Positions 80 through 14,762 of a DNA stretch of 15,031 bases are shown here, piece after piece; the stretch's first letter is position 1; every line of letters starts with the position of its first letter. Source of the stretch: Bdellovibrionota bacterium FG-2 (GTDB lineage Bacteria > Bdellovibrionota > UBA1018); assembly GCA_051382305.1 (NCBI GenBank), contig JBBCAV010000123.1, positions 1 to 15,031 of the forward strand, written 5' to 3'. The translations under genes were made by a program, and so were the position numbers. Below the pieces are notes generated by a model. The model was not told the origin of the DNA, did not search any database, and saw only the letters and a program-made list of their open reading frames with translations.

Positions 80-535
80 TCACGATTCAAAAAATTCCTT
101 GCAACGAAGGGCGGGTCCATCCATATCTGCCAATCTCAACCCCCCCTCATTTTTTAACGTCTCCTGAACCCAATGAGCCACGCCCGTTATGGAGCTAACG
201 GCCGCCTCATAACCGATGAGTTTTTTAGGAAGGTGCTCTTTACTCGACGTAGGGTCTTTTTGAATTTGCTCAAAAATCTCTTGTTCACGCTTTGGACTGA
301 GTGCTCCAACAAATCCATGGGGATACAGTTGATGCGCGTATTTTGCGGAAGGCGACGAAAAATCTTTTGCCGCCTGTTCGCCCAGAAGTTTGGCCAAGGC
401 TAAACGTTGGCTATTGGTGATGAGGCGTTTTGAAAGAAAAAAAGGGGCATCTAGCGACCTGATAGATGCTAACACACCAAAAAAAGAGTAAATTGTTACG
501 AACTTAACTACTTGAAATTGTACATAAAAAAACAT
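80..535 (-). CDS. Hypothetical protein, divergent from the radical SAM operon; true start uncertain (ATG 535 lies inside a predicted promoter; in-frame GTG 475 or TTG 397 are alternatives)
   Basis: 151-codon ORF with protein-like composition, downstream of a good minus-strand promoter. No recognisable motif and no clear RBS. Confidence 0.4.
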   Translation of the reverse strand: MFFYVQFQVVKFVTIYSFFGVLASIRSLDAPFFLSKRLITNSQRLALAKLLGEQAAKDFSSPSAKYAHQLYPHGFVGALSPKREQEIFEQIQKDPTSSKEHLPKKLIGYEAAVSSITGVAHWVQETLKNEGGLRLADMDGPALRCKEFFES

Positions 536-545
536 AAGATGTCAA
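517..545 (-). promoter_or_regulatory. Predicted sigma70-type promoter, leftward
   Basis: Minus strand: TTGACA (545-540), 17-nt spacer, TACAAT (522-517). The -35 is perfect, the -10 matches 5/6 and the spacing is optimal. Confidence 0.7.
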
Positions 546-622: not shown

Positions 623-628
623 AGGAGA
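623..628 (+). promoter_or_regulatory. Shine-Dalgarno site of the small peptide ORF
   Basis: AGGAGA followed by an A-rich spacer (AATCAAA) before ATG 636. Confidence 0.8.
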
Positions 629-635
629 AATCAAA

Positions 636-743
636 ATGGACGAAAATCAAGTCCAGCAAGTGCTGGAAGAGCAAGAACTGATCCTCGCCCCCTTCGAACT
701 TATCCTTTTGGACGAAGCACGAATTGGTGACGGTGGATTCTAG
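636..743 (+). CDS. 35-aa peptide MDENQVQQVLEEQELILAPFELILLDEARIGDGGF; putative RiPP precursor
   Basis: Translated by hand from ATG 636 to TAG 743. It has a strong RBS, is the first ORF after the promoter and ends 9 nt before the radical SAM start. Acidic/aliphatic leader-like region followed by a short Gly-rich C-terminus (RIGDGGF). Too short for the ORF track. Confidence 0.8.
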   Translation: MDENQVQQVLEEQELILAPFELILLDEARIGDGGF

Positions 744-752
744 AGGCTTGTT

Positions 753-2453
753 ATGCGCCAGAAAAGATCGCCATCAAAAGTATTACTGACGACCTTCTCT
801 GGCGCACCAACCTCATTCAACTTTTTTATCCCTGATCCAGGCTTGGCACTACTTGCAGGGGTACTCAAAGCGAACGGGTATACGCCCATTATCATTGACT
901 TTAACTCGCTCGAACATTTGGAAGATACTTTTAATCGAAATGACCTCACTGAACATTTCATGCAAACCTCCGATTTTTCAGACCGCAACTCCAACAACGC
1001 AAAATCCGAGGATTTTTACGCATTAAAATCCGAATTCACCGCCATATTTCTTCGAAATTCCGAAGAAAGAATTTTTGAATCTCTGAAAACAAAGATCACC
1101 GAAACAAAAAGTAAACTCCTCTGCATAAAGCCTTGGCTCGGCCCCTCTCTAGAGATATTTTTGAAAATAAGTAAACGCCTAAAAAACCTATTTCCTGGGT
1201 TAACGATCGCCCTTGGAGGCCCATCGATTTCAAGTATAGACAAAGAAGCGCTCCCTTTTCTTAGTGAAGTTGACTTCATTACCTTTGGTAAGGGTGAACA
1301 AGCGATTCTAAGCATTTTGGATGTAGTTAATGGTAAAAAAGAACCAGAAAATGTCGAAAATACCTATTTTTTAAACGAAGACAAGAAATACCAATACGGC
1401 ACTCATTCAACTCAACGCACCTTAACCACTCCTGCCTCACCTCTTTATGATCCCGACGTCTATCTCGGTATCGCTGAACAAAAATTACCTCTTTTTATCG
1501 TCGAGGATTCGCGAGGCTGTTATTTTTCGTGCGCCTTCTGTACCCATCCAAATAAATCCGACAACTCGGTAATCGAAAATCCAGTAGAAAACACTTTCAA
1601 GCAATTCCAATCTCTCCATCAACAGTTTGGCTCAACAACATTTCGTCTTTCCGGCTCCTGTCCACCGCCCCGCCTATTTAATCATTTATCTAAAATGATA
1701 ATCGAATCGAACCAAACGTTTCGCATCGGCGCATTTTTTCACTCCGCCTTCACTCCTCATGTTGACTTTAAAGCAATGGCAAAAGCCGGGTTTACTGCCC
1801 TTTTGACCGGAATTGAAAGCACAGATGAAAGTACACGTGTGAACTTTTTTAAAAAAAATCTAAATTTACAGCACCTAAACCTTCTAGGCAACCTCGCCGG
1901 AAAAAATGGAATATTTATCAATCAAAGCCTCATTATACCAACACCAGGAGACTCATTGAGTCACCTAAGAGCGTATATATCCAAATATCCATTTCAAAAA
2001 GATTTGTCTTCCATTTCGGTATCGTTTCCAAAAATTTTTCCAGAAACAGATTGGTGGTCCTCGTCCAATAGTTACGGAATTGAAATTTCTTCACGTTCCG
2101 CATATCTAAAGTACCTGCTATTTGGAAAGAGTGAGAATGAGGCCCGCCCTCAATCACTAGCACTTACGATCAACAACAAAACCCATCAACAACTAGTGTC
2201 TGAGTTCATCACCGCAAAAAAAACAATACTATCATCCGGAGTTCAGCTCGACTTTAGCGATGAACTAAGCCTTATGGCGGCGGCGCTGAAATTGCCTAAC
2301 TCTGCTTTTCAAAAAATCCAAAGCACAGCTATCGGTCTTTTTGATTTACCGAAAATAGTGACTCTTTTTTCTGACCTTAAGACTTGCCTCACATCCTCTC
2401 CCAAAAATACCAGGTCTTTTCAATACCTTCCCCAGGAGTCGGAACATGTATAA
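753..2453 (+). CDS. B12-binding domain radical SAM enzyme (class B, methyltransferase-like), 566 aa
   Basis: N-terminal cobalamin-binding Rossmann signatures (PDPGLALLAGVLKANG...IIDFN, ALGGPS, DFITFGKGE). SRGCYFSCAFC carries CxxxCxxC at 1518-1541, followed by a GIES motif. AGAGG RBS at 742-746. Confidence 0.92.
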   Translation: MRQKRSPSKVLLTTFSGAPTSFNFFIPDPGLALLAGVLKANGYTPIIIDFNSLEHLEDTFNRNDLTEHFMQTSDFSDRNSNNAKSEDFYALKSEFTAIFLRNSEERIFESLKTKITETKSKLLCIKPWLGPSLEIFLKISKRLKNLFPGLTIALGGPSISSIDKEALPFLSEVDFITFGKGEQAILSILDVVNGKKEPENVENTYFLNEDKKYQYGTHSTQRTLTTPASPLYDPDVYLGIAEQKLPLFIVEDSRGCYFSCAFCTHPNKSDNSVIENPVENTFKQFQSLHQQFGSTTFRLSGSCPPPRLFNHLSKMIIESNQTFRIGAFFHSAFTPHVDFKAMAKAGFTALLTGIESTDESTRVNFFKKNLNLQHLNLLGNLAGKNGIFINQSLIIPTPGDSLSHLRAYISKYPFQKDLSSISVSFPKIFPETDWWSSSNSYGIEISSRSAYLKYLLFGKSENEARPQSLALTINNKTHQQLVSEFITAKKTILSSGVQLDFSDELSLMAAALKLPNSAFQKIQSTAIGLFDLPKIVTLFSDLKTCLTSSPKNTRSFQYLPQESEHV

Positions 2454-5130
2454 ATTTCTAGCCCTCTTTTTACTAAATACATTCGGCGATATCTTAGTTA
2501 TTTCAACAATACCAATGTATATTATTGAGAAAACAGGGAGCTTTACCAAGGGAACCTATTTCACCATTCTCGTCTTTGTCGCCATATTGATCACAGCGAG
2601 GCTAGCGGGGTTTTTAACTCAGAAATTCAACCCGCTTAAATTTGTAGCAGTGATCGACCTGCTTTCCGCATTATTGGTCCTGGGGTTACTCACCACTCTT
2701 CGTGTATATGGGTTTCACTTCGAAACTTTTCTCGGGGAATGCGCAGTTCTCGCTCTTGTTGTTAACCTTCCGCTATTTGCAAAGTACAATTTGATTCATC
2801 GGTATTTCGTAGATGAAAAAGATTTGACCCAGTTTTCACTACTTCAAGGCCGCGCCAGTGGCCTAATTCTAATCTTGTCTATGCTTAGCGCTGGCTTTCT
2901 ATTTCCAAAATTAGGCTTTCAAGGCATTCTTTGGATTGACATTGCTACCTACCTACCGTGTGCCTTCTTATTGATTATGAATCGAAAAGAATCACCGCTT
3001 GGATACTATTCCAGAAAATCTGCCACCCCTACAGAGACCAACCCAGGTTCTCACTCTGCACCAGTTGGACAGCCTATTCTGGTCCAATTCCTATTGGTCG
3101 CATTGTTTCTTTTTTTAGTTCAAAATTTAAGGTCACACCTTCTTCTGTCGATTTTCAAAGTGCAATTTCAACACATTGGCCTAAATACTATTTCTCTATT
3201 TGCCGCAGTTGGCGCCATATTTTCGTTGCTATTGGCACGCTTTACTAACCATTACTATCTTCATTTAAAGAGTGTTCCGCTCGCCCTCCTAGCGGCTTTA
3301 ACTTTGCCTGTAGGAATCGCATTCTTTCTGGAGAAGTACCCATTTTTATGCATATTTCTCGCATCAGTATTTATCAACGACTGGATAGCTATTGGCTTAT
3401 CTTTATCTCGGGCTCTTCAAATGCGCGCAGAACCCTATTACCCCATGTCCAAACTTGTCTCACTTTCCATGGGATTTTCCTGTTTTTTTGGAATGTTTGG
3501 CGTCTTGGGATTTTCAAAAATTGGAGTTAATTACGGATTTGGGCTGGGATTTATTTTGATTTCTTCCACTATCTTCCTTTCCCACATCACCCTATTACCA
3601 TTTCTCAAAAGAAAGAGAGCCATCGCCTCAATAGCTACCGCCCTGTTCTGTATGATTATCTCCTCTTTTTCGTATGCTGCCGAAAATCGTTATACTACGG
3701 CAATGTCGGACCTTCCTCGGGATCTATCAGCCATCACTCCCGAAATGCTAACGGAGGACGAGAGTTTTCTGAAGACGAATACAATGTGTTCTCTGATCAG
3801 ACGAGATATCAACCAAGGTCTAATTCCTGAATTAGCCCAATCTTGGAAAATCATCGTCCCCGACCAGGTCATTGCTTTTACCATCCGCGAAGGTGCCCAT
3901 GACAGTGAAAACAATGAAATTGATGCATTGTACGTAAAAAAGAGCATGGAAGAGCAGATCAGAAAAACCCTAAGTCGGGCCCGTACCATTAATGGATTCG
4001 ACCTAATTAAAGGGGTTTCTGAATGCAACGAACGACGGTGTGTGTTGCCCGGCCTAGTTGTTGAAGGAAAAAGAGGAATTCGAATCGAATTAACCCGCCC
4101 GTGGCCTGGTTTACTTGGACTCCTGGAAGCCTCATCCTTTGTCCAAAGTGTGAGACACGATGGTAAACGAGACATTCCTATTAGTTGCGGCCCTTATCGA
4201 ATTGCGAAAATGGATGAAACGGGACTCGAGCTTACAAGAAATCCCTACTCAATTCGTCCCGCAATTGGAGGTCCTGATAAATTTATTATTCGGGTTTTGC
4301 CACCCAAAGAGGCTTACAAGGCCTTTTGTACCCATCAGATTAACGATCTTCTTTTCTACATGCCGTCCAAAGCTGACCTCCTTCGAGGAGGGTGTACTGG
4401 TGGGAACTTTGATTATAGAGAAGTATACACGGCCGGTTTCTGGTTTATTTCGTTGGGTGCAAAAATTCCAGGTCTTAGCTCGGCTATTTTGAACCGACTG
4501 AAAAAAGCCTTTAACAAGGATGTTTTCAAGAAAACTTGGGGGATTGAAGCAACTGATCAAGGACGGCTTATTCCCAGAGACTTTGGGCTATCCCCCCACA
4601 CTCCAGATCTCACGCCACCTCCTCTAAATACGATAGCGATAAACGATAAAAGCCTCGCCAAAACACCGGTAGTCATCCGATTCATCAGTGGAACACCCAA
4701 TGAATCCAACCTCAACCAAGCACTTCTTGATTGGATAAAAATGGCGGAGTTGTCCGCCAATATTATCCCAACAAAATTTTCTGAATTCATGACTGACCTC
4801 AGTGAAGGAAAATCGGACATCTATGTTTATGCAGAAATTGCAAACTCCCCTAACCCACTTGCATTCCTCGCTACTTTTTACCAAAAAGCGCTTCGGCAGG
4901 CATCTCATCATGAAAGAACTAAGCTTGAGCAGGCATGGCGCCAATACGAAACGACTCGATCAAAGATAGATTTAGACCAACTTGAACTAACGATTCGGAG
5001 AAGTAACCTTTTTCTTCCACTTTTTTCATTCAAGCGACCGCTGGTTATTTCCAAAGATTGGACAGTCGGACGTTATGGTGATCTTGGATTATTTAGCGTC
5101 GAAATCAGCCGCTTTGGGAGGCGCCAATGA
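2446..5130 (+). CDS. Fusion of an MFS exporter (about aa 1-387, DHA3/EntS/MefA-like) with an extracytoplasmic solute-binding protein family 5 domain (about aa 412-894)
   Basis: About 12 hydrophobic segments in a 6+6 layout with a central hydrophilic loop. The N-terminus resembles DHA3 (GDILVISTIPMYIIEKTGS; AGFLTQKFNPLKFVAVIDL as a degenerate motif A). The C-half has the SBP5 signature LIPELAQSWKI...FTIREG...IDALYVKKS and CGPYRI. Overlaps the upstream stop by 8 nt. Confidence 0.82.
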   Translation: MYKFLALFLLNTFGDILVISTIPMYIIEKTGSFTKGTYFTILVFVAILITARLAGFLTQKFNPLKFVAVIDLLSALLVLGLLTTLRVYGFHFETFLGECAVLALVVNLPLFAKYNLIHRYFVDEKDLTQFSLLQGRASGLILILSMLSAGFLFPKLGFQGILWIDIATYLPCAFLLIMNRKESPLGYYSRKSATPTETNPGSHSAPVGQPILVQFLLVALFLFLVQNLRSHLLLSIFKVQFQHIGLNTISLFAAVGAIFSLLLARFTNHYYLHLKSVPLALLAALTLPVGIAFFLEKYPFLCIFLASVFINDWIAIGLSLSRALQMRAEPYYPMSKLVSLSMGFSCFFGMFGVLGFSKIGVNYGFGLGFILISSTIFLSHITLLPFLKRKRAIASIATALFCMIISSFSYAAENRYTTAMSDLPRDLSAITPEMLTEDESFLKTNTMCSLIRRDINQGLIPELAQSWKIIVPDQVIAFTIREGAHDSENNEIDALYVKKSMEEQIRKTLSRARTINGFDLIKGVSECNERRCVLPGLVVEGKRGIRIELTRPWPGLLGLLEASSFVQSVRHDGKRDIPISCGPYRIAKMDETGLELTRNPYSIRPAIGGPDKFIIRVLPPKEAYKAFCTHQINDLLFYMPSKADLLRGGCTGGNFDYREVYTAGFWFISLGAKIPGLSSAILNRLKKAFNKDVFKKTWGIEATDQGRLIPRDFGLSPHTPDLTPPPLNTIAINDKSLAKTPVVIRFISGTPNESNLNQALLDWIKMAELSANIIPTKFSEFMTDLSEGKSDIYVYAEIANSPNPLAFLATFYQKALRQASHHERTKLEQAWRQYETTRSKIDLDQLELTIRRSNLFLPLFSFKRPLVISKDWTVGRYGDLGLFSVEISRFGRRQ

Positions 5131-7652
5131 ACAAGCCTGATCACCACATCATCAAGACAGTATTGTATCCGCTGGTCTTACTGTTCGGGTTAAGTACGGC
5201 TGTTACCCTTTTCTCAATTAAAGAAACTAGAAAAGTCGCTCTTCTGTCATCTGACACGTTTATTCTTGAACAGTTAATTAAAGTATCGGACGAAGCGATT
5301 TTGAATCAAGATGTATTAGCTTTGACTGCAAATGCCCAATCCCTCATCGGTGAGAGAATGCGAATTCGGTTAACCTTTCCGGATGGGTATCAAGTGTATT
5401 ATCCGAAAGATTATTTTGCCAACTCCTGGGAACGTAAGAGTTCAATTGAGTTCAATTATAAGATGCGTTCTGGGCAGAACCTAAAAGTCGAAGCATGGAC
5501 AGGCGAGGGGAGAGAGCCGTGGGCACTCTATTTCATTTATCTTCTGCTTATTACCCTTGGCACCCTTGTATTTTTTTTAGCTTTACGAAATATTCGAAAA
5601 TGGGAAGCCGACTTCACAAGTACTGCCAAATATCTATATGGCGCAGCAAAAGAAGCAAAGGAGCCCGCCCTCCATTTCGCATTTTTTGAATCTATTGCAA
5701 GATTTGCAAGGAAGGCTATTGATAACGAGAGAGCTATGATCGAGCAAGCTTTCAAACTGGAGCAAGCGAACCACATCGCGCAACTCGCCTCCCAAGTCGC
5801 CCACGACATCCGATCCCCACTCTCCGCCCTCACCATGGCAGAAAAAGAATTCTCCAAGCTTCCTGAAGAAACCCGCCTGATCGTCCGCAGCGCCGTTGGC
5901 CGTATCCGGGACATTGCAAATACATTGCTGGAAAGAAATCGCGCGATCAAAGTTAACCAAGAATCTGCGAGCGACAATACTACCACTACGGCTGAACCAA
6001 GAACCATTCAACTGCTCTCCGCAATCCTGGACGGCATTGTGAGCGAGAAGCGCATGCAATTTCGGCCCAAGCTCGGAGTCAATATCGAGTTTGAGGACAC
6101 GCGGCGCAGTTATGGCCGATTTGCTTCCATTCAGACCGGCGAGTTCAAGCGAATGGTGTCCAACCTCATCAATAATGCCGTAGAAGCACTCCCTGACTCT
6201 GGCCAGGTTTTTGTAACCCTGAACGGGGGAGAGTCTGAAGTCGTGATCAAGGTGAGGGATACCGGCAAAGGAATTCCGCCTGAAATTTTGGCGAAGCTTG
6301 GGCGTCAGGGTGAAACCCACGGCAAAACCGACGGAAATGGGCTTGGTCTGTATCACGCGCGCACACAATGCGAAGCCTGGGGTGGCAGCCTAGTGATCAC
6401 CTCTCAAGTGGGCGAGGGAACGACAGTGGTCATCACCCTTCCACGGACCAGCCCCCCCGAGTGGTTCGTTGCAGAGCTCAAGCTACAGCCCAACTCAACC
6501 GTCGTAGTTCTCGACGACGACGACAGTATTCACCGGATTTGGCAGGGAAGGGCAGACTCCGAGAAAATGCTCGAGCAAGGCATTACACTCATTCACCTCT
6601 CGACTCCCTCCGACATTTGTAGGTGGCATGCAGAGTCGGTGAAAAATGGCCTTAAGTTGGTTCAGTATCTTTGTGACTATGAGCTACTTGGATTTGACGA
6701 AACAGGTTTAGACCTAATTGAGAAGCTTGGAATTGCCAGCCAGAGTATCTTGGTGACCAGTCGATACGAAGAACCGACAATACGAGAACGTTGTAACAAT
6801 CTTCGAGTGCCGCTCATCCCTAAGGGTAACGCGGCTATTGTACCCATCACAGTCACGGCGGCCGCCCCAGCACCGGAAACCAAAGCCCCCGATGCCATCC
6901 TCATCGACGATGATGATTTAGTGCACCTCACATGGAAGGCCGCCGCCAAGCGCAAAGGTCTTACGCTCCTGGGGTTCAAGTCTGTGGATGAGTTTCTCAG
7001 GGCCGCTGAGTTGCTGAGCCGGTCAACCCCCGTCTACATCGACTCCTACCTCGGCAACGACTCAACCGGTAAGCCCGTTCAAGGCGAGGAAGCATCCCGT
7101 GATATTTCAGCCATGGGCTTCAAGGAGATCTACCTAGCCACTGGGCTCGCACCGACCAATCCCGAGCGCTACACGTGGCTTACGGGAATCCGGGATAAGG
7201 ACCCACCTTTTACTGAGCCCCCTGTAGCGGTGGAAATCGACTACGCAAAAGTACGCAACTACTGCCATGACCTGCTTAAGCCGATCCAACAGGCCAGCAA
7301 CATTCTGAGGATGATCGACAACGTCAATCTCGATGACCCCACTGATCCAGAGTCCCTTTCTGACTACCTGCCACTCCTGGATGGGGTCGGCAAGACACTC
7401 ACCAGCCAGCGCAATCATCGCCTTCAGATGAGAGCCGAGATGACGGCCGGTGACCTTACCCGCGTTGCGGACTTGGATGATCGTCTCATGAAGGCTTATG
7501 ACGAAGTCCAACGAAGCGCAGTTTGCTCTCCTGATCAAATCGTGGGGCTAAAACGCAGCGGAGAGCTCAGTCAGCGCTTTAAGGTGCTCCAAGTGGAGTC
7601 ATCGGCCCTGGCACGCGATTCGGCCGCACTCCTCAACGCGAACCGAAATTAA
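5127..7652 (+). CDS. Membrane-bound hybrid sensor histidine kinase: TM-periplasmic-TM, HisKA, HATPase, two receiver-like domains, C-terminal HisKA-like helical domain
   Basis: Two TM segments. H-box QVAHDIRSPL (H226), N-box NLINNAVEA, G1 DTGKGI, G2 GNGLGL. REC1 VLDDDD...LCDY...LVTS...IPK; REC2 LIDDDD...YIDS...LATG...DK. C-terminal CHDLLKPI (H714). ATGA 4-nt overlap with the upstream gene. Confidence 0.92.
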   Translation: MNKPDHHIIKTVLYPLVLLFGLSTAVTLFSIKETRKVALLSSDTFILEQLIKVSDEAILNQDVLALTANAQSLIGERMRIRLTFPDGYQVYYPKDYFANSWERKSSIEFNYKMRSGQNLKVEAWTGEGREPWALYFIYLLLITLGTLVFFLALRNIRKWEADFTSTAKYLYGAAKEAKEPALHFAFFESIARFARKAIDNERAMIEQAFKLEQANHIAQLASQVAHDIRSPLSALTMAEKEFSKLPEETRLIVRSAVGRIRDIANTLLERNRAIKVNQESASDNTTTTAEPRTIQLLSAILDGIVSEKRMQFRPKLGVNIEFEDTRRSYGRFASIQTGEFKRMVSNLINNAVEALPDSGQVFVTLNGGESEVVIKVRDTGKGIPPEILAKLGRQGETHGKTDGNGLGLYHARTQCEAWGGSLVITSQVGEGTTVVITLPRTSPPEWFVAELKLQPNSTVVVLDDDDSIHRIWQGRADSEKMLEQGITLIHLSTPSDICRWHAESVKNGLKLVQYLCDYELLGFDETGLDLIEKLGIASQSILVTSRYEEPTIRERCNNLRVPLIPKGNAAIVPITVTAAAPAPETKAPDAILIDDDDLVHLTWKAAAKRKGLTLLGFKSVDEFLRAAELLSRSTPVYIDSYLGNDSTGKPVQGEEASRDISAMGFKEIYLATGLAPTNPERYTWLTGIRDKDPPFTEPPVAVEIDYAKVRNYCHDLLKPIQQASNILRMIDNVNLDDPTDPESLSDYLPLLDGVGKTLTSQRNHRLQMRAEMTAGDLTRVADLDDRLMKAYDEVQRSAVCSPDQIVGLKRSGELSQRFKVLQVESSALARDSAALLNANRN

Positions 7653-7923: not shown

Positions 7924-9510
7924 ATGACACGTCAGGCAAGGAAACGTCTTATGGACCGGAAAATTGTGGAACTGCTTTTACAGGGGGTGAGTGCCCGAGA
8001 GGCGATGCGACAACTGCGACTGGGAGACCGCAGGGTTCGCAAAGTGAAGTTGCTTGCTGAGGAATATGGGTACCTAAGCCGAACTGAACCAGTGCCACTC
8101 CCCTTGTACCCTGAGCCACTTTTTCCGGATGGGCCTGATGGACGGGCAAATAAGGCGTCAGAGGCCAACACGCTAATGTTGGCCAGAAAGCCTTGGGTCA
8201 TCGAGCGCCTTGAAGCCGGATGGCATCCCATCACCGTTTACGAAGAACTGGGGATAGCAGTAAGTCGATCAAGCTTTTACCGGTTTTTACACCGCCATGA
8301 AATCTATAAACTCTCTGAGGGTTCTCGTAGGGTGGTCCCTGAGATTATCCACAACCCCGGGGAGGCCCTGCTTCTGGACTGGGGCAAGCTTAGAGATGTC
8401 GTTGATCCAGAGACGGGAAAAAGGCGCATTTTGTGGGCTTTTGTTGGGGTACTCGGCTACTCGCGCTACCTCATGGTGCGTCTCGTCTGGACTAATGAGA
8501 CTCAAGTAACCCTTCGTGCGATTGAAAGCATGCTCAGGGAAATTGGCGGTGTTCCAGAGCGAGTTACCTCGGACAACCCCAAATGTTTCGCACTTGAGGC
8601 ATCCCGCTACGAGCCTCTTCTTAATCCCGCCTTCGAGCGAATGGCGGGTCATTACGGCATGAGGATTGAGTGCCTCCCACCGGCTGACCCGGAAAAAAAG
8701 GGGAAAGTAGAGCGTCCCATGCCGTACATCCGTCGACTATACGAGGCCCACGGCGAGGTCTGGCATGGCATCGAGGAATCTCAAGCTTACCTGGAACGTA
8801 AACTTTTACTGGCCAACGAACGCAAACATGGCACCACTCGCATGAAGCCGATCGAGCAACTACTTCAAGTTGAAGTCAGCCAACTCAAGCCGCTGCCATC
8901 GCTAGCCTACGAGCCCGAAGAAGTCAGTGAAGGCAAGGTAAGGCGGGATGGTCATGTCAGGTTTGATAGCAAATACTACTCGCTCGAAGAAAGATTTATC
9001 GGCAAGGAAGTCCTGATTCTTGCCACCAAAACCCAAGTGTCGCTCTACCACCAAGGCCACCTGGTTGAGGTCCATGAGCGCATACCACTTACGAATGCAC
9101 TCACCTCAAAATCAACGAAACTACACCACCGAAAACCCTGGGAAAGAGAAATGCAAGATGAGTCCATGTATCGCAGCAAGGCCCTGAAACTGGGGCCTGA
9201 CGTCGATCGATTGGTTCTGATGATTTTAAGTCAGGGCCAAGGGTTTATCGACACCCGTAAAATTTGGGGCGTTTTAAGCTTAGACAAGACGTACTCACCG
9301 GCCCAAATAAACGAAGCTTGCCGCCAGGCCATTGAGCTTGACGCCATCGGTTACCGGTCAATCAAGGCGCTCATCAAACTTCTCCCCCAAGATCCAAAAG
9401 GCGCGAATCCTCAACAAAGAGACTCCAAGCAAGCGAGCCAATTAGACGCCAAAAACAAGTTCGTTAGATCAATGTCGGTCTACGAAGAACAGCTCAAATT
9501 ACTGCATTAA
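7924..9510 (+). CDS. istA: IS21-family DDE transposase IstA, 528 aa
   Basis: N-terminal HTH-like region; PGEALLLDWG (D), LGYSRY, TSDNPK (D), KGKVER (E); C-terminal VRRDGHVRFDSKYYS beta-barrel motif. Confidence 0.96.
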   Translation: MTRQARKRLMDRKIVELLLQGVSAREAMRQLRLGDRRVRKVKLLAEEYGYLSRTEPVPLPLYPEPLFPDGPDGRANKASEANTLMLARKPWVIERLEAGWHPITVYEELGIAVSRSSFYRFLHRHEIYKLSEGSRRVVPEIIHNPGEALLLDWGKLRDVVDPETGKRRILWAFVGVLGYSRYLMVRLVWTNETQVTLRAIESMLREIGGVPERVTSDNPKCFALEASRYEPLLNPAFERMAGHYGMRIECLPPADPEKKGKVERPMPYIRRLYEAHGEVWHGIEESQAYLERKLLLANERKHGTTRMKPIEQLLQVEVSQLKPLPSLAYEPEEVSEGKVRRDGHVRFDSKYYSLEERFIGKEVLILATKTQVSLYHQGHLVEVHERIPLTNALTSKSTKLHHRKPWEREMQDESMYRSKALKLGPDVDRLVLMILSQGQGFIDTRKIWGVLSLDKTYSPAQINEACRQAIELDAIGYRSIKALIKLLPQDPKGANPQQRDSKQASQLDAKNKFVRSMSVYEEQLKLLH

Positions 9511-9552
9511 TTTGAGTTCTAACCCAAACAAAACAAAAGGAAATAAAATCCC

Positions 9553-10323
9553 ATGACACCTGAAATATTAAAGTCGCTTCTGGGAGACCTCAGGCTGCCC
9601 ACTGCGGCGAAAGAGCTTGAGGTCATACTATCGAGTCAGAAAAAAGCGGTGAGCCTCGGCTGGGTCGCAGACCTCCTCGAACGAGAAATCGACTCCAGAC
9701 GAGAAAACAGTCTAAAAGCTCGACTTAAAAGTGCGAGATTCCCTGAAATCACCACCCTTGAGGGTTTTGACTTTAGTTTTAACCCAGATATTGATGAAGA
9801 AAAGATCAGGGAACTCGCGACCCTCAAGTTTATGAGTCAAAACCAAATCGCACTCTTTCTTGGGGCTCCCGGGGTCGGGAAAACTCACCTTGCGCTAGCC
9901 ATTGGGGTCCTGGCCGTGCGCGATGGCCGCCGGGTTTACTGCACGAGTGCAAAACGACTTTCTCAGGAAATCATACTGGGAAAGCTCCGAGGAAATCTTG
10001 ACTTACTTTTCAAGAAACTGCTGTCGGCCCACCTTTGGATTATTGACGACTGGGGCGTCGTATCGATGAACCGAGAAGTGGCGGAGAAAATGTTCGACCT
10101 CATGGACCGCCGCAAACATAGCTCCGCAATGATCCTAACCAGCAATCGTGACGTCAGTGAGTGGGCTCAGGTTTTTCCAGACCCTATCATTGCAAACGCG
10201 ACCGTCGACCGCATCTTTGACCGGGCTAAAACGGTTCTATTTAAAGGCGAGAGTTACAGGCTAAAAGGTCGGATTGTGACAAGGGATGTTAAAGAGATTG
10301 ACGAAGTAATAAAAAAACACTAA
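9553..10323 (+). CDS. istB: IS21-family AAA+ ATPase helper IstB, 256 aa
   Basis: Walker A GAPGVGKT, Walker B WIIDD, LTSN, ATVDRI and GESYR motifs. AAGGA RBS upstream. Confidence 0.96.
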   Translation: MTPEILKSLLGDLRLPTAAKELEVILSSQKKAVSLGWVADLLEREIDSRRENSLKARLKSARFPEITTLEGFDFSFNPDIDEEKIRELATLKFMSQNQIALFLGAPGVGKTHLALAIGVLAVRDGRRVYCTSAKRLSQEIILGKLRGNLDLLFKKLLSAHLWIIDDWGVVSMNREVAEKMFDLMDRRKHSSAMILTSNRDVSEWAQVFPDPIIANATVDRIFDRAKTVLFKGESYRLKGRIVTRDVKEIDEVIKKH

Positions 10324-10491: not shown

Positions 10492-11382
10492 GTGAAGCGC
10501 CTTCGATCGCACGGCAGAATTATCCTTTTCACAGCCTTCGTCGCGGTTAGATCCCCAGCTACGACCCAGCATTTTCTTGTTCAAGTGTCGGATGACCGCT
10601 TGGTTCACGCCACATTAAATCTACCGAGCGGCCTTCTCCCAGGACAAAGGGTTCCCGTCCTCATGGTTTTTGGCGGCTTTGAAGGCGCCGGAAGGGTTTT
10701 AGATTTGATTCATACCGAAAAACCCATAGCCTTGGCGAGTTTCGACTATCCCTTCTCTCAGTCCAGGAATCTTAAATTTCCAGGCGTCCTTCAAGCGCTC
10801 CCGGAAGCCAAGCAACTATTTCCCGCTACAGTCCAAGGTATTTTGGACCTAGCGAAATCTCTTCGGAGTCGGCCGGAAATCGATCCCCATCGTATTTTTG
10901 CATTGGGTGCAAGCTTCGGCTCCCCGTTTGTTTTAGCCGCTGCAGCTAAGGACGCAGATATTTCTGCGGTAATTCTGGTTCATGCCTTTGGCCAAGTTCC
11001 CGAGACCGCAGAACACGTGCTCCTCCGAAGCTGGTTGCCTCGTTATGGCTGGATTTCACGTCCGGCTGCCTGGTTTTTGTCCCGGCTCTTCTGGCTTTAT
11101 CTCGGAATTGAGTCTCCCGAAACCGATGCACAAAAACTCAACGACAAACAGCGCGTCTTCATGATTACCGCCTCCCAGGACTCCTTTATTCCACAATCAT
11201 CATCGAATTCTCTTTGGCTCGCGCTTCAGCAATCTCCCGCTCACGTCACACGAAAAGTCATGATAACGGACCATTTAATGCCGGGATCAGAAAAACTGAT
11301 CGATGAAATTATCCACGAGGTTGAAACGTGGATTGACCAGACTAAAAGTACGCAATCGACGACAAATTCACTCACCGAGTAA
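10492..11382 (+). CDS. Alpha/beta-fold serine hydrolase, probably exported, 296 aa
   Basis: Nucleophile elbow LGASFG (GxSxG), VFGG oxyanion-like loop, candidate Asp (ASQDSFIP) and His (TDHL). Basic-then-hydrophobic N-terminus. GTG start with AGGA 9 nt upstream. Confidence 0.85.
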   Translation: MKRLRSHGRIILFTAFVAVRSPATTQHFLVQVSDDRLVHATLNLPSGLLPGQRVPVLMVFGGFEGAGRVLDLIHTEKPIALASFDYPFSQSRNLKFPGVLQALPEAKQLFPATVQGILDLAKSLRSRPEIDPHRIFALGASFGSPFVLAAAAKDADISAVILVHAFGQVPETAEHVLLRSWLPRYGWISRPAAWFLSRLFWLYLGIESPETDAQKLNDKQRVFMITASQDSFIPQSSSNSLWLALQQSPAHVTRKVMITDHLMPGSEKLIDEIIHEVETWIDQTKSTQSTTNSLTE

Positions 11383-11424: not shown

Positions 11425-12804
11425 TTGATACAATCCAACTCACGTATCTTGATGGCAACCAGTAATACCCTCCTCATTCTAGGTCTTCTTGCGGTCTCGG
11501 GCTCTTTGGAGGCCCAGGCTGTGGAATATTACGGCCGAGCGATGGCCGGAGCATTGCTTTCATCGGAACAAAGCAAAGACACCTCGGACCCAACCGTGGG
11601 GAATGACTCCAGCATCGTGTCGAGTCGCCTATCCGCTCGCATTCTTGGGCTGAGTTCGTATGGCTTTGAAGGAAACCTCGATTTAAGAGACAAAAATGAC
11701 TTTTTCGAAAAGCTCGACCGCGAGAAGCTTCAACTCACCTCCGGAAACCAGTTTCAGGTGCAACAACTCAATGCGCGGTTACCTGCAATCTCGAGCCGAA
11801 TTTTCGGCACCGTTGGGCGTTTTAGCCTTCCCGAGACCGGCGGGAAATTTAGCGATGGCCTCGAAACAGGATATCGCTGGAATGATTCGTGGCGCACGGC
11901 AATTTTTGGAGGCCTCAATCCCAAACTCGAGGAACAAACGTTTGTTACCTATAATCCAGATAGCCAGATCTTAGGCACTTATACCTCCTATCAACCCCAA
12001 GTCTTTTCTTCCTCCCAAAGCGCTTTTTGGTCAACCGCTTGGGTGGGGGAGCGCACCGCCGCTCACCTAGATAGGCTTTTTTGGTTTAACGAGTTTATTT
12101 TTCATTATTCAAACACCAATCAGTTGATCGCAATGGGGTTCTTTGACTTCATCCCCAGATTCGAAATTCAAACAGCCCTCCTTTCGTGGCACCAAGAGCT
12201 CATGAGCCATTGGTCCTCTCAATTGAATTTGACGGCAATCGATGTCATCGAATATTCGCGGCGCAAAGGAATCCTAGAAACCTTGCCCTCAAGCCCTTAC
12301 CGAGAAGCGGCTCTGAGCCTAAGGCGCCAATGGGGTGAGGCCGGATTTTTTGACTTCAACGGATCATATGGTCTTCGAGATCTAGATTCACTCGCCAAAA
12401 TCGAGTTTTCAGCGGGACCTTCTTTTTACCGAGTTTTTGACCCAAATATCTCATTTAAGTTATTAGAAGGGGCCCGGCGCAACTTTATCAGCAACGATCT
12501 CTTTACTCGGATAGGTGGCTCTTACTTTGGAAAAACCTGGGAAGTCGATGTAGACTTCGGCTTTTCCCGTGTTGCTGAAAATGATGGCGCCACAAAGCAT
12601 CAATGGATCAATGAAATCGCTTACTCGCATTACTTCGGACGAGAACTGCTTGCCTCCTTATCGCTTGAGCAGGCCAGGGACGAGCAAACATCCATTTGGA
12701 GCGGCTCCGTTCGAGTGAGTTACTCTTTCGGACAAAGATCGTTTGCACCCCTTCCGCAGCAGGCACCTCCTCCTAGCCCAATCCCTCCGATGGGGAGGCT
12801 CTGA
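11425..12804 (+). CDS. Probable outer-membrane beta-barrel protein (candidate porin of a porin-cytochrome complex); ATG 11452 is a plausible start
   Basis: Signal peptide ending AQA|VE. Many amphipathic beta-strand-like segments rich in aromatic residues and Gly (GFEGNLDLR, FGTVGRF, DGLETGYRW, WEVDVDFGF, VRVSYSF). Stop overlaps the cytochrome start (TGATG). Confidence 0.7.
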   Translation: MIQSNSRILMATSNTLLILGLLAVSGSLEAQAVEYYGRAMAGALLSSEQSKDTSDPTVGNDSSIVSSRLSARILGLSSYGFEGNLDLRDKNDFFEKLDREKLQLTSGNQFQVQQLNARLPAISSRIFGTVGRFSLPETGGKFSDGLETGYRWNDSWRTAIFGGLNPKLEEQTFVTYNPDSQILGTYTSYQPQVFSSSQSAFWSTAWVGERTAAHLDRLFWFNEFIFHYSNTNQLIAMGFFDFIPRFEIQTALLSWHQELMSHWSSQLNLTAIDVIEYSRRKGILETLPSSPYREAALSLRRQWGEAGFFDFNGSYGLRDLDSLAKIEFSAGPSFYRVFDPNISFKLLEGARRNFISNDLFTRIGGSYFGKTWEVDVDFGFSRVAENDGATKHQWINEIAYSHYFGRELLASLSLEQARDEQTSIWSGSVRVSYSFGQRSFAPLPQQAPPPSPIPPMGRL

Positions 12805-14762
12805 TGGCTAAACCTATCTTTCTTTTCTTGCTCTCACTCTTTTTCAGCGTTGGTTCCGTTTTTGCGTCCGAAGGTCAAGCACCCGAGGGGCTGCTCAACA
12901 AACTCTTAGCCCCCGGCCAACTCATCGAAGGCCACAAGGATCTCGAACAATCTCGCTGTTTAGAATGCCATGTTCCCCGCGAAGGCATTCCTAATTCAAA
13001 ATGCCTGGAATGCCATAAACCCATTCGCGCCCAAGTAGAAAAGAAATCCGGATTTCACGGCCTCGCCACTCAAGCCTGTATCTCTTGCCACTCGGATCAC
13101 AAAGGGCGAAATTTCGACACCACCCAGGTGGATTCAAAAAAATTCGATCATAAATTAACCGGATACATCCTTGAGGGAAAACACGCCGATCTCAAGTGCT
13201 CCGATTGCCACAAAGAAAAACGCGCTGAGCGCACTCATTACTTTGGTCTCAAGGTTTCTTGCGTCAGCTGTCACCAAAAAAACGATCCTCACCAATTTCA
13301 GGGCGACTGGGCAAAAAAGGATTGCAATGCTTGCCACCAGCTCAAGGCCTGGAAAGAAAATGTTCGATTTGACCACAAAAAAGACGCGCACTTTCAACTT
13401 GAAGGGAAACACGCTCAGATCGGCTGCAAGGATTGCCACCTTCCTGAAAATAGCAAGCACGCCATCTATCATTGGGAACACTTTGAAAAAACGTCCTGCC
13501 TGGCTTGCCATAAAAACAATCCGCACCATTTTGGAACCTTCAAATCCCCGCGCCTCAAAAATCCCAACGATTGCAGCACCTGCCATCTAGAAACTGGATG
13601 GAAGGATACCCCCAAATTTAGCCATAACGAACAAACTCGTTTCAAAATCGGGGGCAAGCACTTGGATCTTAAGTGCGACAAATGCCACACCCCGATTTCT
13701 GGATCAAAAAACCCCAAGGACCAAGGGCCCAGGATCTACCATTGGGAAAAGCTTTCACAAATAACCTGTGCGGTCTGTCACCACAACCCCCACACCAAGA
13801 CCTTTGCACCTAACCTTCTAAAAAAACAGTGTACCGAATGTCATAATGACCGGAGTTGGACTGAATTTAAAAAAACAGGAATCAACTTTGACCATGCTTC
13901 AACCCGCTTTGCACTTACTGGAAAACATGAATCCTTGTCTTGTGAGGCTTGTCACCGAATCAACGAAAAACCCGTTTTCAAATTCAAAAACCAGACTTTG
14001 AATTTCTGCGTGGATTGCCATAAAAATGTCCATCTCGGTCAAATGAGCTCGTCCACAACAACCCAAGCCTGCTCTCAATGCCATTCCACCCAGACCTTCG
14101 AAAAACGTTTAGAATTCGACCATTCAAAAACCCAATATCCCCTTAAATGGAAGCACGCCAACGTGGATTGCATCAAATGCCATTTACCCACCTTGGACAA
14201 ATTTTCGGAAAAACCATTTCGAACTAAGTCCAGGTTTCAATTTCCTACGCTGAGGACACAAGATTGCGCCGCTTGCCATAAAGATCCCCATGAAGCGCGG
14301 TATGGGAAGCTCTGCTTATCTTGCCACACGGAACAAGGCTGGAAATCTGGAAATACCGACTTTCACAAGGCCTTTACTCTCCAAGGCGTCCACTTCACTT
14401 TTCAATGTGGTGAATGCCATTTGGATAAGCGCCCGCTCGCTGGCCAAAGTCAAATGTGCGTCCTTTGCCACAAAAAAGATGACGTTCACCAAGGTCGACT
14501 GGGCGAATGCTCAAAGTGCCATGAGCAAACTTTTTGGGAAATGCCCCGTTTTAGACATTCAATGACCAGCTTTCCCCTACGTGGAATTCACCGGACGCTC
14601 GATTGCAATGCGTGCCATTCAACCGGAATTTACCGTGGCCTAACCAATCAATGTGTCAATTGTCACCTGAACGATGCCCTTAGTTTTACGGGCAACCCCG
14701 ATCACCATCTACTCATGGGGCGAAACTGTTCAGACTGTCACAATCAATTTTCGTTTCACTAA
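12804..14762 (+). CDS. Exported multiheme c-type cytochrome with 24 CxxCH motifs in eight triheme repeats, 652 aa
   Basis: 24 CxxCH motifs counted by hand, from CLECH to the terminal CSDCH. Repeat unit FxH...(F/Y)xLxGxH...CxxCH...CxxCH..(D/N)(P/V)H...CxxCH...W. Sec signal peptide VFA|SE, no lipobox. Confidence 0.95.
   Translation: MAKPIFLFLLSLFFSVGSVFASEGQAPEGLLNKLLAPGQLIEGHKDLEQSRCLECHVPREGIPNSKCLECHKPIRAQVEKKSGFHGLATQACISCHSDHKGRNFDTTQVDSKKFDHKLTGYILEGKHADLKCSDCHKEKRAERTHYFGLKVSCVSCHQKNDPHQFQGDWAKKDCNACHQLKAWKENVRFDHKKDAHFQLEGKHAQIGCKDCHLPENSKHAIYHWEHFEKTSCLACHKNNPHHFGTFKSPRLKNPNDCSTCHLETGWKDTPKFSHNEQTRFKIGGKHLDLKCDKCHTPISGSKNPKDQGPRIYHWEKLSQITCAVCHHNPHTKTFAPNLLKKQCTECHNDRSWTEFKKTGINFDHASTRFALTGKHESLSCEACHRINEKPVFKFKNQTLNFCVDCHKNVHLGQMSSSTTTQACSQCHSTQTFEKRLEFDHSKTQYPLKWKHANVDCIKCHLPTLDKFSEKPFRTKSRFQFPTLRTQDCAACHKDPHEARYGKLCLSCHTEQGWKSGNTDFHKAFTLQGVHFTFQCGECHLDKRPLAGQSQMCVLCHKKDDVHQGRLGECSKCHEQTFWEMPRFRHSMTSFPLRGIHRTLDCNACHSTGIYRGLTNQCVNCHLNDALSFTGNPDHHLLMGRNCSDCHNQFSFH

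Follow-up and report, generated by a model that had tools for sequence, protein, structure and literature searches.

The window, meaning the whole stretch of DNA analysed here, is an entire 15,031-base contig (C123) of an 85%-complete genome in 433 contigs. On its forward strand, a small gene of 35 codons plus a TAG (636..743) is followed by the gene of a predicted class-B-type enzyme of 566 aa (B12-binding domain and radical SAM domain; 753..2453), which starts 9 nt after the peptide stop, by a gene for an 894-aa fusion protein (2446..5130) and by a gene for an 841-aa hybrid sensor histidine kinase (5127..7652). The small gene runs from an ATG at 636-638 to a TAG at 741-743, has a Shine-Dalgarno (SD) sequence AGGAGA (623..628, forward strand) 7 nt 5' of its ATG, and would encode the 35-aa candidate precursor peptide MDENQVQQVLEEQELILAPFELILLDEARIGDGGF, whose N-terminal part is acidic and helix-prone and whose C-terminal tail, RIGDGGF, is rich in Gly. 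These coordinates and the translation agree with the first-pass annotation, which was also right that the peptide of the window has nine acidic residues (D/E), a single basic one (R) and no Cys, Ser, Thr, Trp or Tyr. A sigma-70-like promoter match upstream of the small ORF (TTGAAA-17-TAAGAT, 9/12, at 512..540, forward strand) is a consensus match only and is not significant by itself, five such sites being found in 400-2600 against 3.7 expected. A divergent 151-aa ORF without a Pfam or NCBIfam family lies on the minus strand at 80-535, accompanied by a strong promoter-like TTGACA-17-TACAAT (11/12) on the minus strand at 545-517.

The GC content of the small ORF as a whole is 0.49, compared with 0.41 for the radical SAM gene and 0.498 for the genome, and by codon position it is 0.77/0.20/0.51. 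The first-pass annotation had set the GC of positions 661-720 against values of 19-22 per sixty bases in the radical SAM gene. The figure of 31/60 for 661-720 is correct, and the contrast is only modest, because '19-22' came from a selective sample of the gene's 27 sixty-base lines, which average 24.5 and span 16 to 31. As a criterion for chance occurrence, we took an ATG ORF of at least 30 aa that is preceded by an SD and lies wholly inside the 300 nt before the radical SAM start. The chance of such an ORF in the window was 3.2% (3000 shuffles of the 300-nt stretch), and 205 of 5000 random 300-nt pieces of the window's genome (4.1%) contained one. With a chance of 3-4%, the small ORF is thus only mildly unusual on the window alone, and its weight comes from its recurrence in relatives. 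The best ESM Atlas score of the 35-aa peptide, 0.84, is below the useful range, its protein-language-model recognition value is low (1842), and in tblastn against its own genome it finds only itself, the other matches, on contigs C9 (E 0.46) and C217 (E 16, at the start of a 98-aa ORF), being attributed to chance. No RNA family of Rfam was found anywhere in the 15,031-base window, and so the window holds no recognisable cobalamin riboswitch.

The small ORF and the enzyme gene lie in the same frame in the window (636-755), with the TAG and three codons between them. This shared frame looks coincidental, because it is absent in two of the related loci described below (L106 and L107) and two stops stand between the genes in a third (L010). 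A read-through fusion of peptide and enzyme was rejected on these same grounds, and is also ruled out by the N-termini of the enzyme's homologues, which align at the start at 753.

The radical SAM enzyme and the conserved module

The enzyme just misses the Pfam cut-offs for the B12-binding domain (28.7 bits, E 1.3e-6; cut-off 32.1) and for Radical_SAM (26.4 bits; cut-off 29.5), and it reaches no curated family cut-off in Pfam or NCBIfam. Its best NCBIfam match is PhpK (TIGR04479, 71 against 600), a small-molecule P-methyltransferase, and its scores are 62.4 against 281.85 for rSAM_ocin_1 (TIGR03975) and 49.5 against a cut-off of 750 for ApyD (NF050148). The three cysteines of the CxxxCxxC motif (C256, C260 and C263) occur without exception in sets of 28 and of 82 homologues. 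In an AlphaFold2 model computed from the alignment of the 82 homologues (mean pLDDT 92), this motif lies in a radical SAM barrel and a B12-type Rossmann domain forms the N-terminal part, and the nearest solved folds are TsrM, OxsB, MgmA, AprD4, TokK and CysS. Since the best solved fold matches are cobalamin-type radical SAM enzymes, the modelled architecture is that of class B, which bears out the assignment made in the first-pass annotation. The use of cobalamin by the enzyme is predicted from this fold class. CobS was not found in the window's 85%-complete genome, and cobalamin would therefore be scavenged, or unused as in AprD4, which reportedly works without it. No leader-binding family of the RRE/PqqD type was present among the Pfam and NCBIfam matches of the enzyme, and no winged-helix unit is evident in the secondary structure of the model. 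Many RiPP enzymes have no RRE, and the absence of this domain does not exclude a RiPP function. Co-folding of the enzyme (82-row alignment) with the peptide (4-row alignment) gave scores of 0.01 and 0.00, which speak neither for nor against binding. An exhaustive HMMER search over 1.84 billion representatives returned 100 proteins at E <=1e-30, among which, besides the query, only five are at 31-41% identity, the remainder being at 29% or less.

The fusion protein encoded downstream combines an MFS-like membrane part of 12 helices, a 13th helix and a family-5 solute-binding domain of the peptide/opine/nickel type. Its hydropathy profile shows 13 hydrophobic segments, 12 of them in the first ~400 residues and the 13th at 392-410. 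The membrane part has a weak match to TIGR00900 (residues 4-311), and the binding domain matches SBP_bac_5 with 49.1 bits over residues 459-814 and, weakly, NikA and CntA in NCBIfam. The kinase has two N-terminal TM helices, which flank a loop of ~100 aa, followed by HisKA, HATPase_c and receiver-like C-terminal parts. In L010, a Bdellovibrio sp. MAG contig, the enzyme gene is followed by genes for a 408-aa membrane protein, a 493-aa SBP_bac_5 protein and a 697-aa kinase. The N-terminal part of the window's fusion protein is 30% identical to the first and its C-terminal part 23% identical to the second, and the two kinases, which occupy the same place, share 43% identity (E 5e-146). The order of radical SAM, MFS-like, SBP_bac_5 and hybrid kinase genes is identical in the window and L010, and in L107 it runs from the radical SAM gene through the MFS-like gene to the start of a lipoprotein-type binding protein, where the contig ends. 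No gene before the peptide or after the kinase is common to the window and L010. The unit with conserved order consists of the peptide, the radical SAM enzyme, the exporter-like protein, the binding protein and the kinase, so that in both the window and L010 the genes of a binding protein and a kinase are conserved together with the putative signal-making genes.

The window has one fused gene for the exporter-like and binding proteins, L010 and L107 two separate ones. In the window, the sequence FSYA and the 13th helix stand where L010 (FSAC) and L107 (LSAC) have lipoprotein signal peptides; judging from this topology, the 13th helix would place the binding domain of the window in the periplasm. 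No protease gene conserved in the module was found, and Peptidase_C39 (PF03412) was not found in the window's 85%-complete genome. An alpha/beta hydrolase gene at 10492-11382 was considered as the protease of the cassette and rejected, as it has no counterpart near the L010 cassette. In L010, a gene of the subtilase family (Peptidase_S8; 797 aa) at 2264-4657 reads in the same direction as the small ORF and stops 112 nt short of it; its product might act as the processing protease in that genome, and the window has no counterpart of it.

Recurrence and character of the small gene in related loci

The close clade of the enzyme comprises homologues at 32-40% identity, and every such locus with retrievable DNA context was examined. 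Four loci could be compared in this way, namely the window, L010, and L106 and L107, the latter two being contigs of one genome in the window's own family, so that three genomes are represented. In all four, an SD-preceded ATG ORF lies just upstream of the enzyme gene on the same strand, with the SD 7-8 nt upstream of the ATG. The ORF of the window (35 aa; SD AGGAGA; end 9 nt before the enzyme gene; chance 3.2%; net charge -8) has as its counterparts an ORF of 33 aa in L010 (AGGGAGA; 105 nt; 1.7%; -3), one of 49 aa in L106 (GGAGG; 46 nt; 3.4%; -7) and one of 50 aa in L107 (GAGGAG; 38 nt; 1.4%; -3), the chances being drawn from 3000 shuffles for each of the four loci. The DNA flanking the small ORFs is otherwise unrelated across the four loci. 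The public protein collection lists each of the four peptides as a called protein, two of them under NCBI locus tags. A short co-oriented precursor gene beside the enzyme, conserved among relatives, is a criterion for RiPP systems, and a candidate for such a gene is found in 4/4 loci; the first-pass annotation had proposed looking for conserved small ORFs upstream of homologous radical SAM genes, and in the close clade they are there. In L106 (G366:C57), the enzyme homologue has one in-frame TAA at ~3250 and is publicly annotated as two adjacent proteins, P0004 and P0037; this copy may be a pseudogene or the result of an assembly error.

The peptides have a common character. All four are acidic and contain no Cys, Trp or Tyr, a combination (charge of -3 or below, no C/W/Y) found in 60 of the 13537 ATG ORFs of 30-60 aa in the window's genome (0.44%). 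A GG pair lies within the last five residues of three of the four, with one to three residues after it, compared with 1.35% of the genome's 30-60-aa ATG ORFs; it is lacking in the L010 peptide. A stretch resembling (E/N)L-x-(I/L/M)-x-(D/E/L) precedes the tail in all four. The shared features of charge, composition and GG tail were picked out after the fact, and these frequencies have to be read in that light. In the alignment of the four sequences, only M1 and one Leu are invariant. Smith-Waterman shuffle p-values are 0.02 for the window and L107, 0.046 for the window and L106 and 0.088 for L106 and L107, and range from 0.59 to 0.76 for every pair with L010. The position of the small ORF is thus conserved, whereas sequence homology among the peptides is only likely, because their pairwise similarity is marginal at n=4. 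In Pfam and NCBIfam (E up to 10), the four peptides matched no family, and a profile of the four run against 5.8 billion proteins returned just the four known peptides.

These comparisons bear on several parts of the earlier proposal. The reading of the small ORF as a precursor holds as far as the reality of the gene and its linkage to the enzyme are concerned (4/4 loci and public gene calls), the core and its chemistry being putative. The core 'ARIGDGGF' proposed in the first-pass annotation was a guess, the relatives' C-terminal tails being different (..DVGGAL, ..KGGETH, ..EGVEKPH). The lack of Ser and Thr applies to the window's peptide alone, since Ser, Thr and His occur in those of L010, L106 and L107.

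Around more distant homologues of the enzyme (20-28% identity), the picture differs. Among 16 such loci, no comparable acidic ORF recurs. With looser criteria, SD-preceded ORFs of 18-110 aa are found in 12 of the 16, none of them acidic with a GG tail, and these ORFs are mutually unlike, except that the same 31-aa ORF is present in L013 and L100. Modifying a peptide is therefore not something that characterises the enzyme family at large.

Distribution, probable mobility and related pairs in the same genome

The close enzyme clade is very rare and was found in three genomes among those searched: in 2 of 75 genomes of the window's family and in 1 of 237 of L010's family. It was absent from all 182 genomes of another family of the same phylum and from a genome of the same genus (98% complete), and 401 genomes sampled from the phylum yielded no additional carrier. 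A search of genome contigs with the single enzyme found no related locus, and a search of metagenome contigs with the enzyme alignment gave one distant match only. Among 89 loci compared, the exporter and binding genes are shared with the window only by L010 and a remnant on contig C217 of the window's own genome. This contig (L002/L105; ~29-190 and 5289-6351) carries a decayed second copy of the cassette, with fragments of the radical SAM enzyme (157 aa, 41% identical), the binding protein (34%) and the kinase (72% over 54 aa), interrupted by a transposase-like ORF of 303 aa.

In the window, the cassette is bounded downstream by an IS21-family element (7924-10323) directly after the kinase gene, made up of istB (256 aa, 190.9 bits against IstB_IS21) and istA, whose 528-aa product has an rve domain and a Mu-transposase C-terminal domain. 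Further along, at 12804-14762, there is a 652-aa multihaem c-type cytochrome with Cytochrome_C7, c3 and MtrC/MtrF-like domains, preceded by a protein of 459 aa that matched no family. GC content is 41-43% in the radical SAM and exporter/binding genes, 51% in the kinase gene and 49.8% in the genome; at third positions, it is 0.39 in the enzyme gene and 0.41 in the exporter/binding gene, against 0.56 in the kinase gene. This difference in base composition may mean that the kinase descends from the resident genome and that the biosynthetic half was brought in. The decayed C217 copy, the low GC and the flanking IS21 element, together with the sparse distribution, point to a cassette that is mobile and sporadically kept.

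Kinase paralogues with 37-49% identity occur on 14 contigs of the window's genome, and on 4 of the 14 there is an adjacent gene for a family-5 binding protein. The neighbours were examined on contigs C102, C129 and C166. On C102 (9527-14953), an SD-preceded ORF of 72 aa comes first, followed in order by a YydG-like radical SAM enzyme (63.8 bits), a GNAT protein, the binding protein and the kinase. On C129 (1955-8157), an SD-preceded ORF of 33 aa, a SAM methyltransferase and a B12-type radical SAM enzyme resembling ApyD (155 bits) stand back-to-back with the binding protein and kinase. On C166 (1083-7063), the binding protein and kinase are preceded on their own strand, at a distance of ~0.9 kb, by an amidohydrolase and a member of the creatininase family. 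The presence of at least three further pairs of binding protein and kinase beside other modifying enzymes suggests a modular family rather than a one-off arrangement.

Proposed function and comparison with known systems

We propose, with moderate confidence, that the small ORF is a real, translated gene which encodes the dedicated substrate (precursor) peptide of the adjacent class-B-type radical SAM enzyme. This reading is supported by the recurrence of the gene, the shared character of the peptides, the public gene calls, the conserved module, the class of the enzyme and the context found elsewhere in the same genome. The acidic, helix-prone N-terminal two thirds of the peptide would serve as the recognition (leader) part, and the enzyme would attack an unactivated carbon of the short, Gly-containing tail at the C-terminus by radical chemistry. 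The first-pass annotation had arrived at C-methylation or new chemistry by elimination. Methylation is the commonest precedent for such tail chemistry and is putative here; it is a favoured guess and not a deduction, because the class is known for several chemistries, which according to PMC10635010 include methylation, C-S, C-P and C-C bond formation and ring contraction, and the enzyme reaches the cut-off of no RiPP methyltransferase model. The product would probably be trimmed by a protease, exported through the MFS-like membrane protein and captured in the periplasm by the family-5 domain, from which the signal would pass to the membrane histidine kinase. In this scheme, the cassette would by itself both produce a modified peptide signal and perceive it, and our preferred reading is that of a new RiPP-like, probably signalling, unit of Bdellovibrionota-type bacteria. 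We infer the substrate role, the modified residues and their chemistry, the export step and the sensing step from the gene content and the predicted proteins. The small number of loci (four), the lack of a detectable leader-binding domain and of a protease in the module, the small-molecule enzyme as best match and the missing CobS weigh against a firmer claim.

Other explanations of the same arrangement have to be considered. It is conceivable, though unlikely, that the small gene is real and its product is no substrate of the radical SAM enzyme, being an unmodified secreted or regulatory peptide, or an upstream ORF that sets enzyme expression by translational coupling. The layout of the window fits coupling, since the stop lies 9 nt before the enzyme's ATG and is overlapped by the enzyme's SD-like AGAGG; no leader-binding domain was detected in the enzyme, and the very weak conservation of the peptide sequences is what one would predict for an ORF that matters only by being translated. 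Tight coupling is, however, not conserved, because the gap is 38-105 nt in the relatives and contains further stops in L010. An acidic composition free of C/W/Y and GG-containing tails would not be expected of a mere coupling ORF either, and the 35-aa peptide has no single-amino-acid runs of the attenuator type.

We give even less credit to the idea that the substrate of the enzyme is a small molecule, for instance a lipid, a phosphonate, a cofactor or a sugar-like compound, which the binding protein and kinase then sense, with the small ORF as an accessory or irrelevant passenger. Most of the best-scoring named relatives of the enzyme do act on small molecules, and such enzymes are among the best NCBIfam and fold matches (PhpK, HpnJ, BzaD, OxsB, AprD4, TokK and CysS); family-5 binding proteins also take nickel chelates and opines, in keeping with the weak NikA and CntA matches here, and a small ORF is not conserved in the enzyme family at large. 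Yet TsrM, MgmA and ApyD-like matches, with amino acid, protein and peptide substrates, score just as well, no other biosynthetic gene is conserved in the module to supply a substrate, and the small ORF is the only conserved upstream partner of the enzyme in the four loci. That the small ORF is an untranslated chance frame in the operon's 5' leader is very improbable and strongly disfavoured. The chance of 3-4% on the window alone is not negligible across a genome, and the recognition value given by the protein language model is low. An SD and an ORF are nevertheless found in 4/4 diverged loci, with a product of per-locus chances of ~3e-7, the four peptides have an unusual composition in common, and GC at the three codon positions of the window's ORF is uneven; the ORF is very probably a real gene on these sequence features.

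If the small gene does encode the enzyme's substrate, a wider hypothesis can be formulated, which we advance only tentatively and consider doubtful in its full extent. The cassette would be one of a series of diversified 'make-and-sense' modules for peptide signalling in bacteria of the predatory type (Bdellovibrionota), each with a small precursor, a differing radical SAM chemistry and its own periplasmic binding protein and hybrid kinase, and here a class-B chemistry new to peptides would act on a Gly-rich tail. In the boldest form of this hypothesis, the one to four residues after GG/GV (F, AL, ETH, EKPH) would be converted and then set free as a diffusible signal of very small size, the remaining peptide being a mere scaffold, as in PQQ, mycofactocin or pearlin biosynthesis. 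Class-B radical SAM enzymes catalyse some of the hardest reactions in peptide natural-product chemistry, and few peptide-modifying ones have been characterised. A modification, if found, would probably be new or unusual for RiPPs, because the enzyme falls outside the curated families and the precursor of the window lacks the common cross-linking residues. With its own exporter, binding protein and kinase, the cassette is also a compact candidate for peptide signalling in Gram-negative bacteria, where such signalling is poorly known.

No published description of the cassette was found in the literature, in a search of main texts, and it has to be placed by comparison with systems that share parts of it. 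The overall fold of the enzyme is shared with TsrM (best match, E 5.6e-17, TM 0.60), MgmA (rank 7) and Mmp10 (rank 48), which methylate amino-acid carbons, namely those of tryptophan and of Gln/Arg of methyl-coenzyme M reductase. Sequence identity to these enzymes is 11-14%, and they act on a free amino acid or on a folded protein, with no dedicated small precursor gene. PoyB and PoyC are class-B radical SAM enzymes that act on unactivated carbons of a ribosomal peptide, and the family to which they belong is described by TIGR03975, 'RiPP maturation radical SAM C-methyltransferase' (proteusin-type), for which the window's enzyme scores far below the cut-off (62.4 vs 281.85). The four peptides, unlike proteusin precursors, match no NHLP, Nif11 or other leader model, and they are 33-50 aa long, compared with ~100 aa or more for precursors of the proteusin type. 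Double-glycine leaders are likewise acidic helical peptides in which GG comes after an (E)L..(I/L) pattern, as seen in three of the four peptides. In the latter, the GG is no mark of a classical double-glycine leader, because only one to three residues follow it and a C39 peptidase was not found in the window's genome; the exporter is, moreover, MFS-like and not the ABC type of double-glycine/PCAT systems.

The aminopyruvatide system of Burkholderia thailandensis offers a further parallel. As in the cassette of the window, a B12-type radical SAM enzyme, ApyD, is encoded beside a short precursor, ApyA, and its target lies within the last five residues: according to PMC10635010, ApyD forms beta-methyl-Tyr in the final GYLYD of ApyA. 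The same paper also ascribes an RRE domain to ApyD, whereas none was detected in the window's enzyme, and the tail of ApyA offers a Tyr as target, a residue that the window's peptide does not contain. The surroundings of the two precursors differ as well. The Apy cluster has genes for an MNIO, a P450 and a methyltransferase and no pair of binding protein and kinase, unlike the cassette described here, in which this pair is part of the conserved unit.
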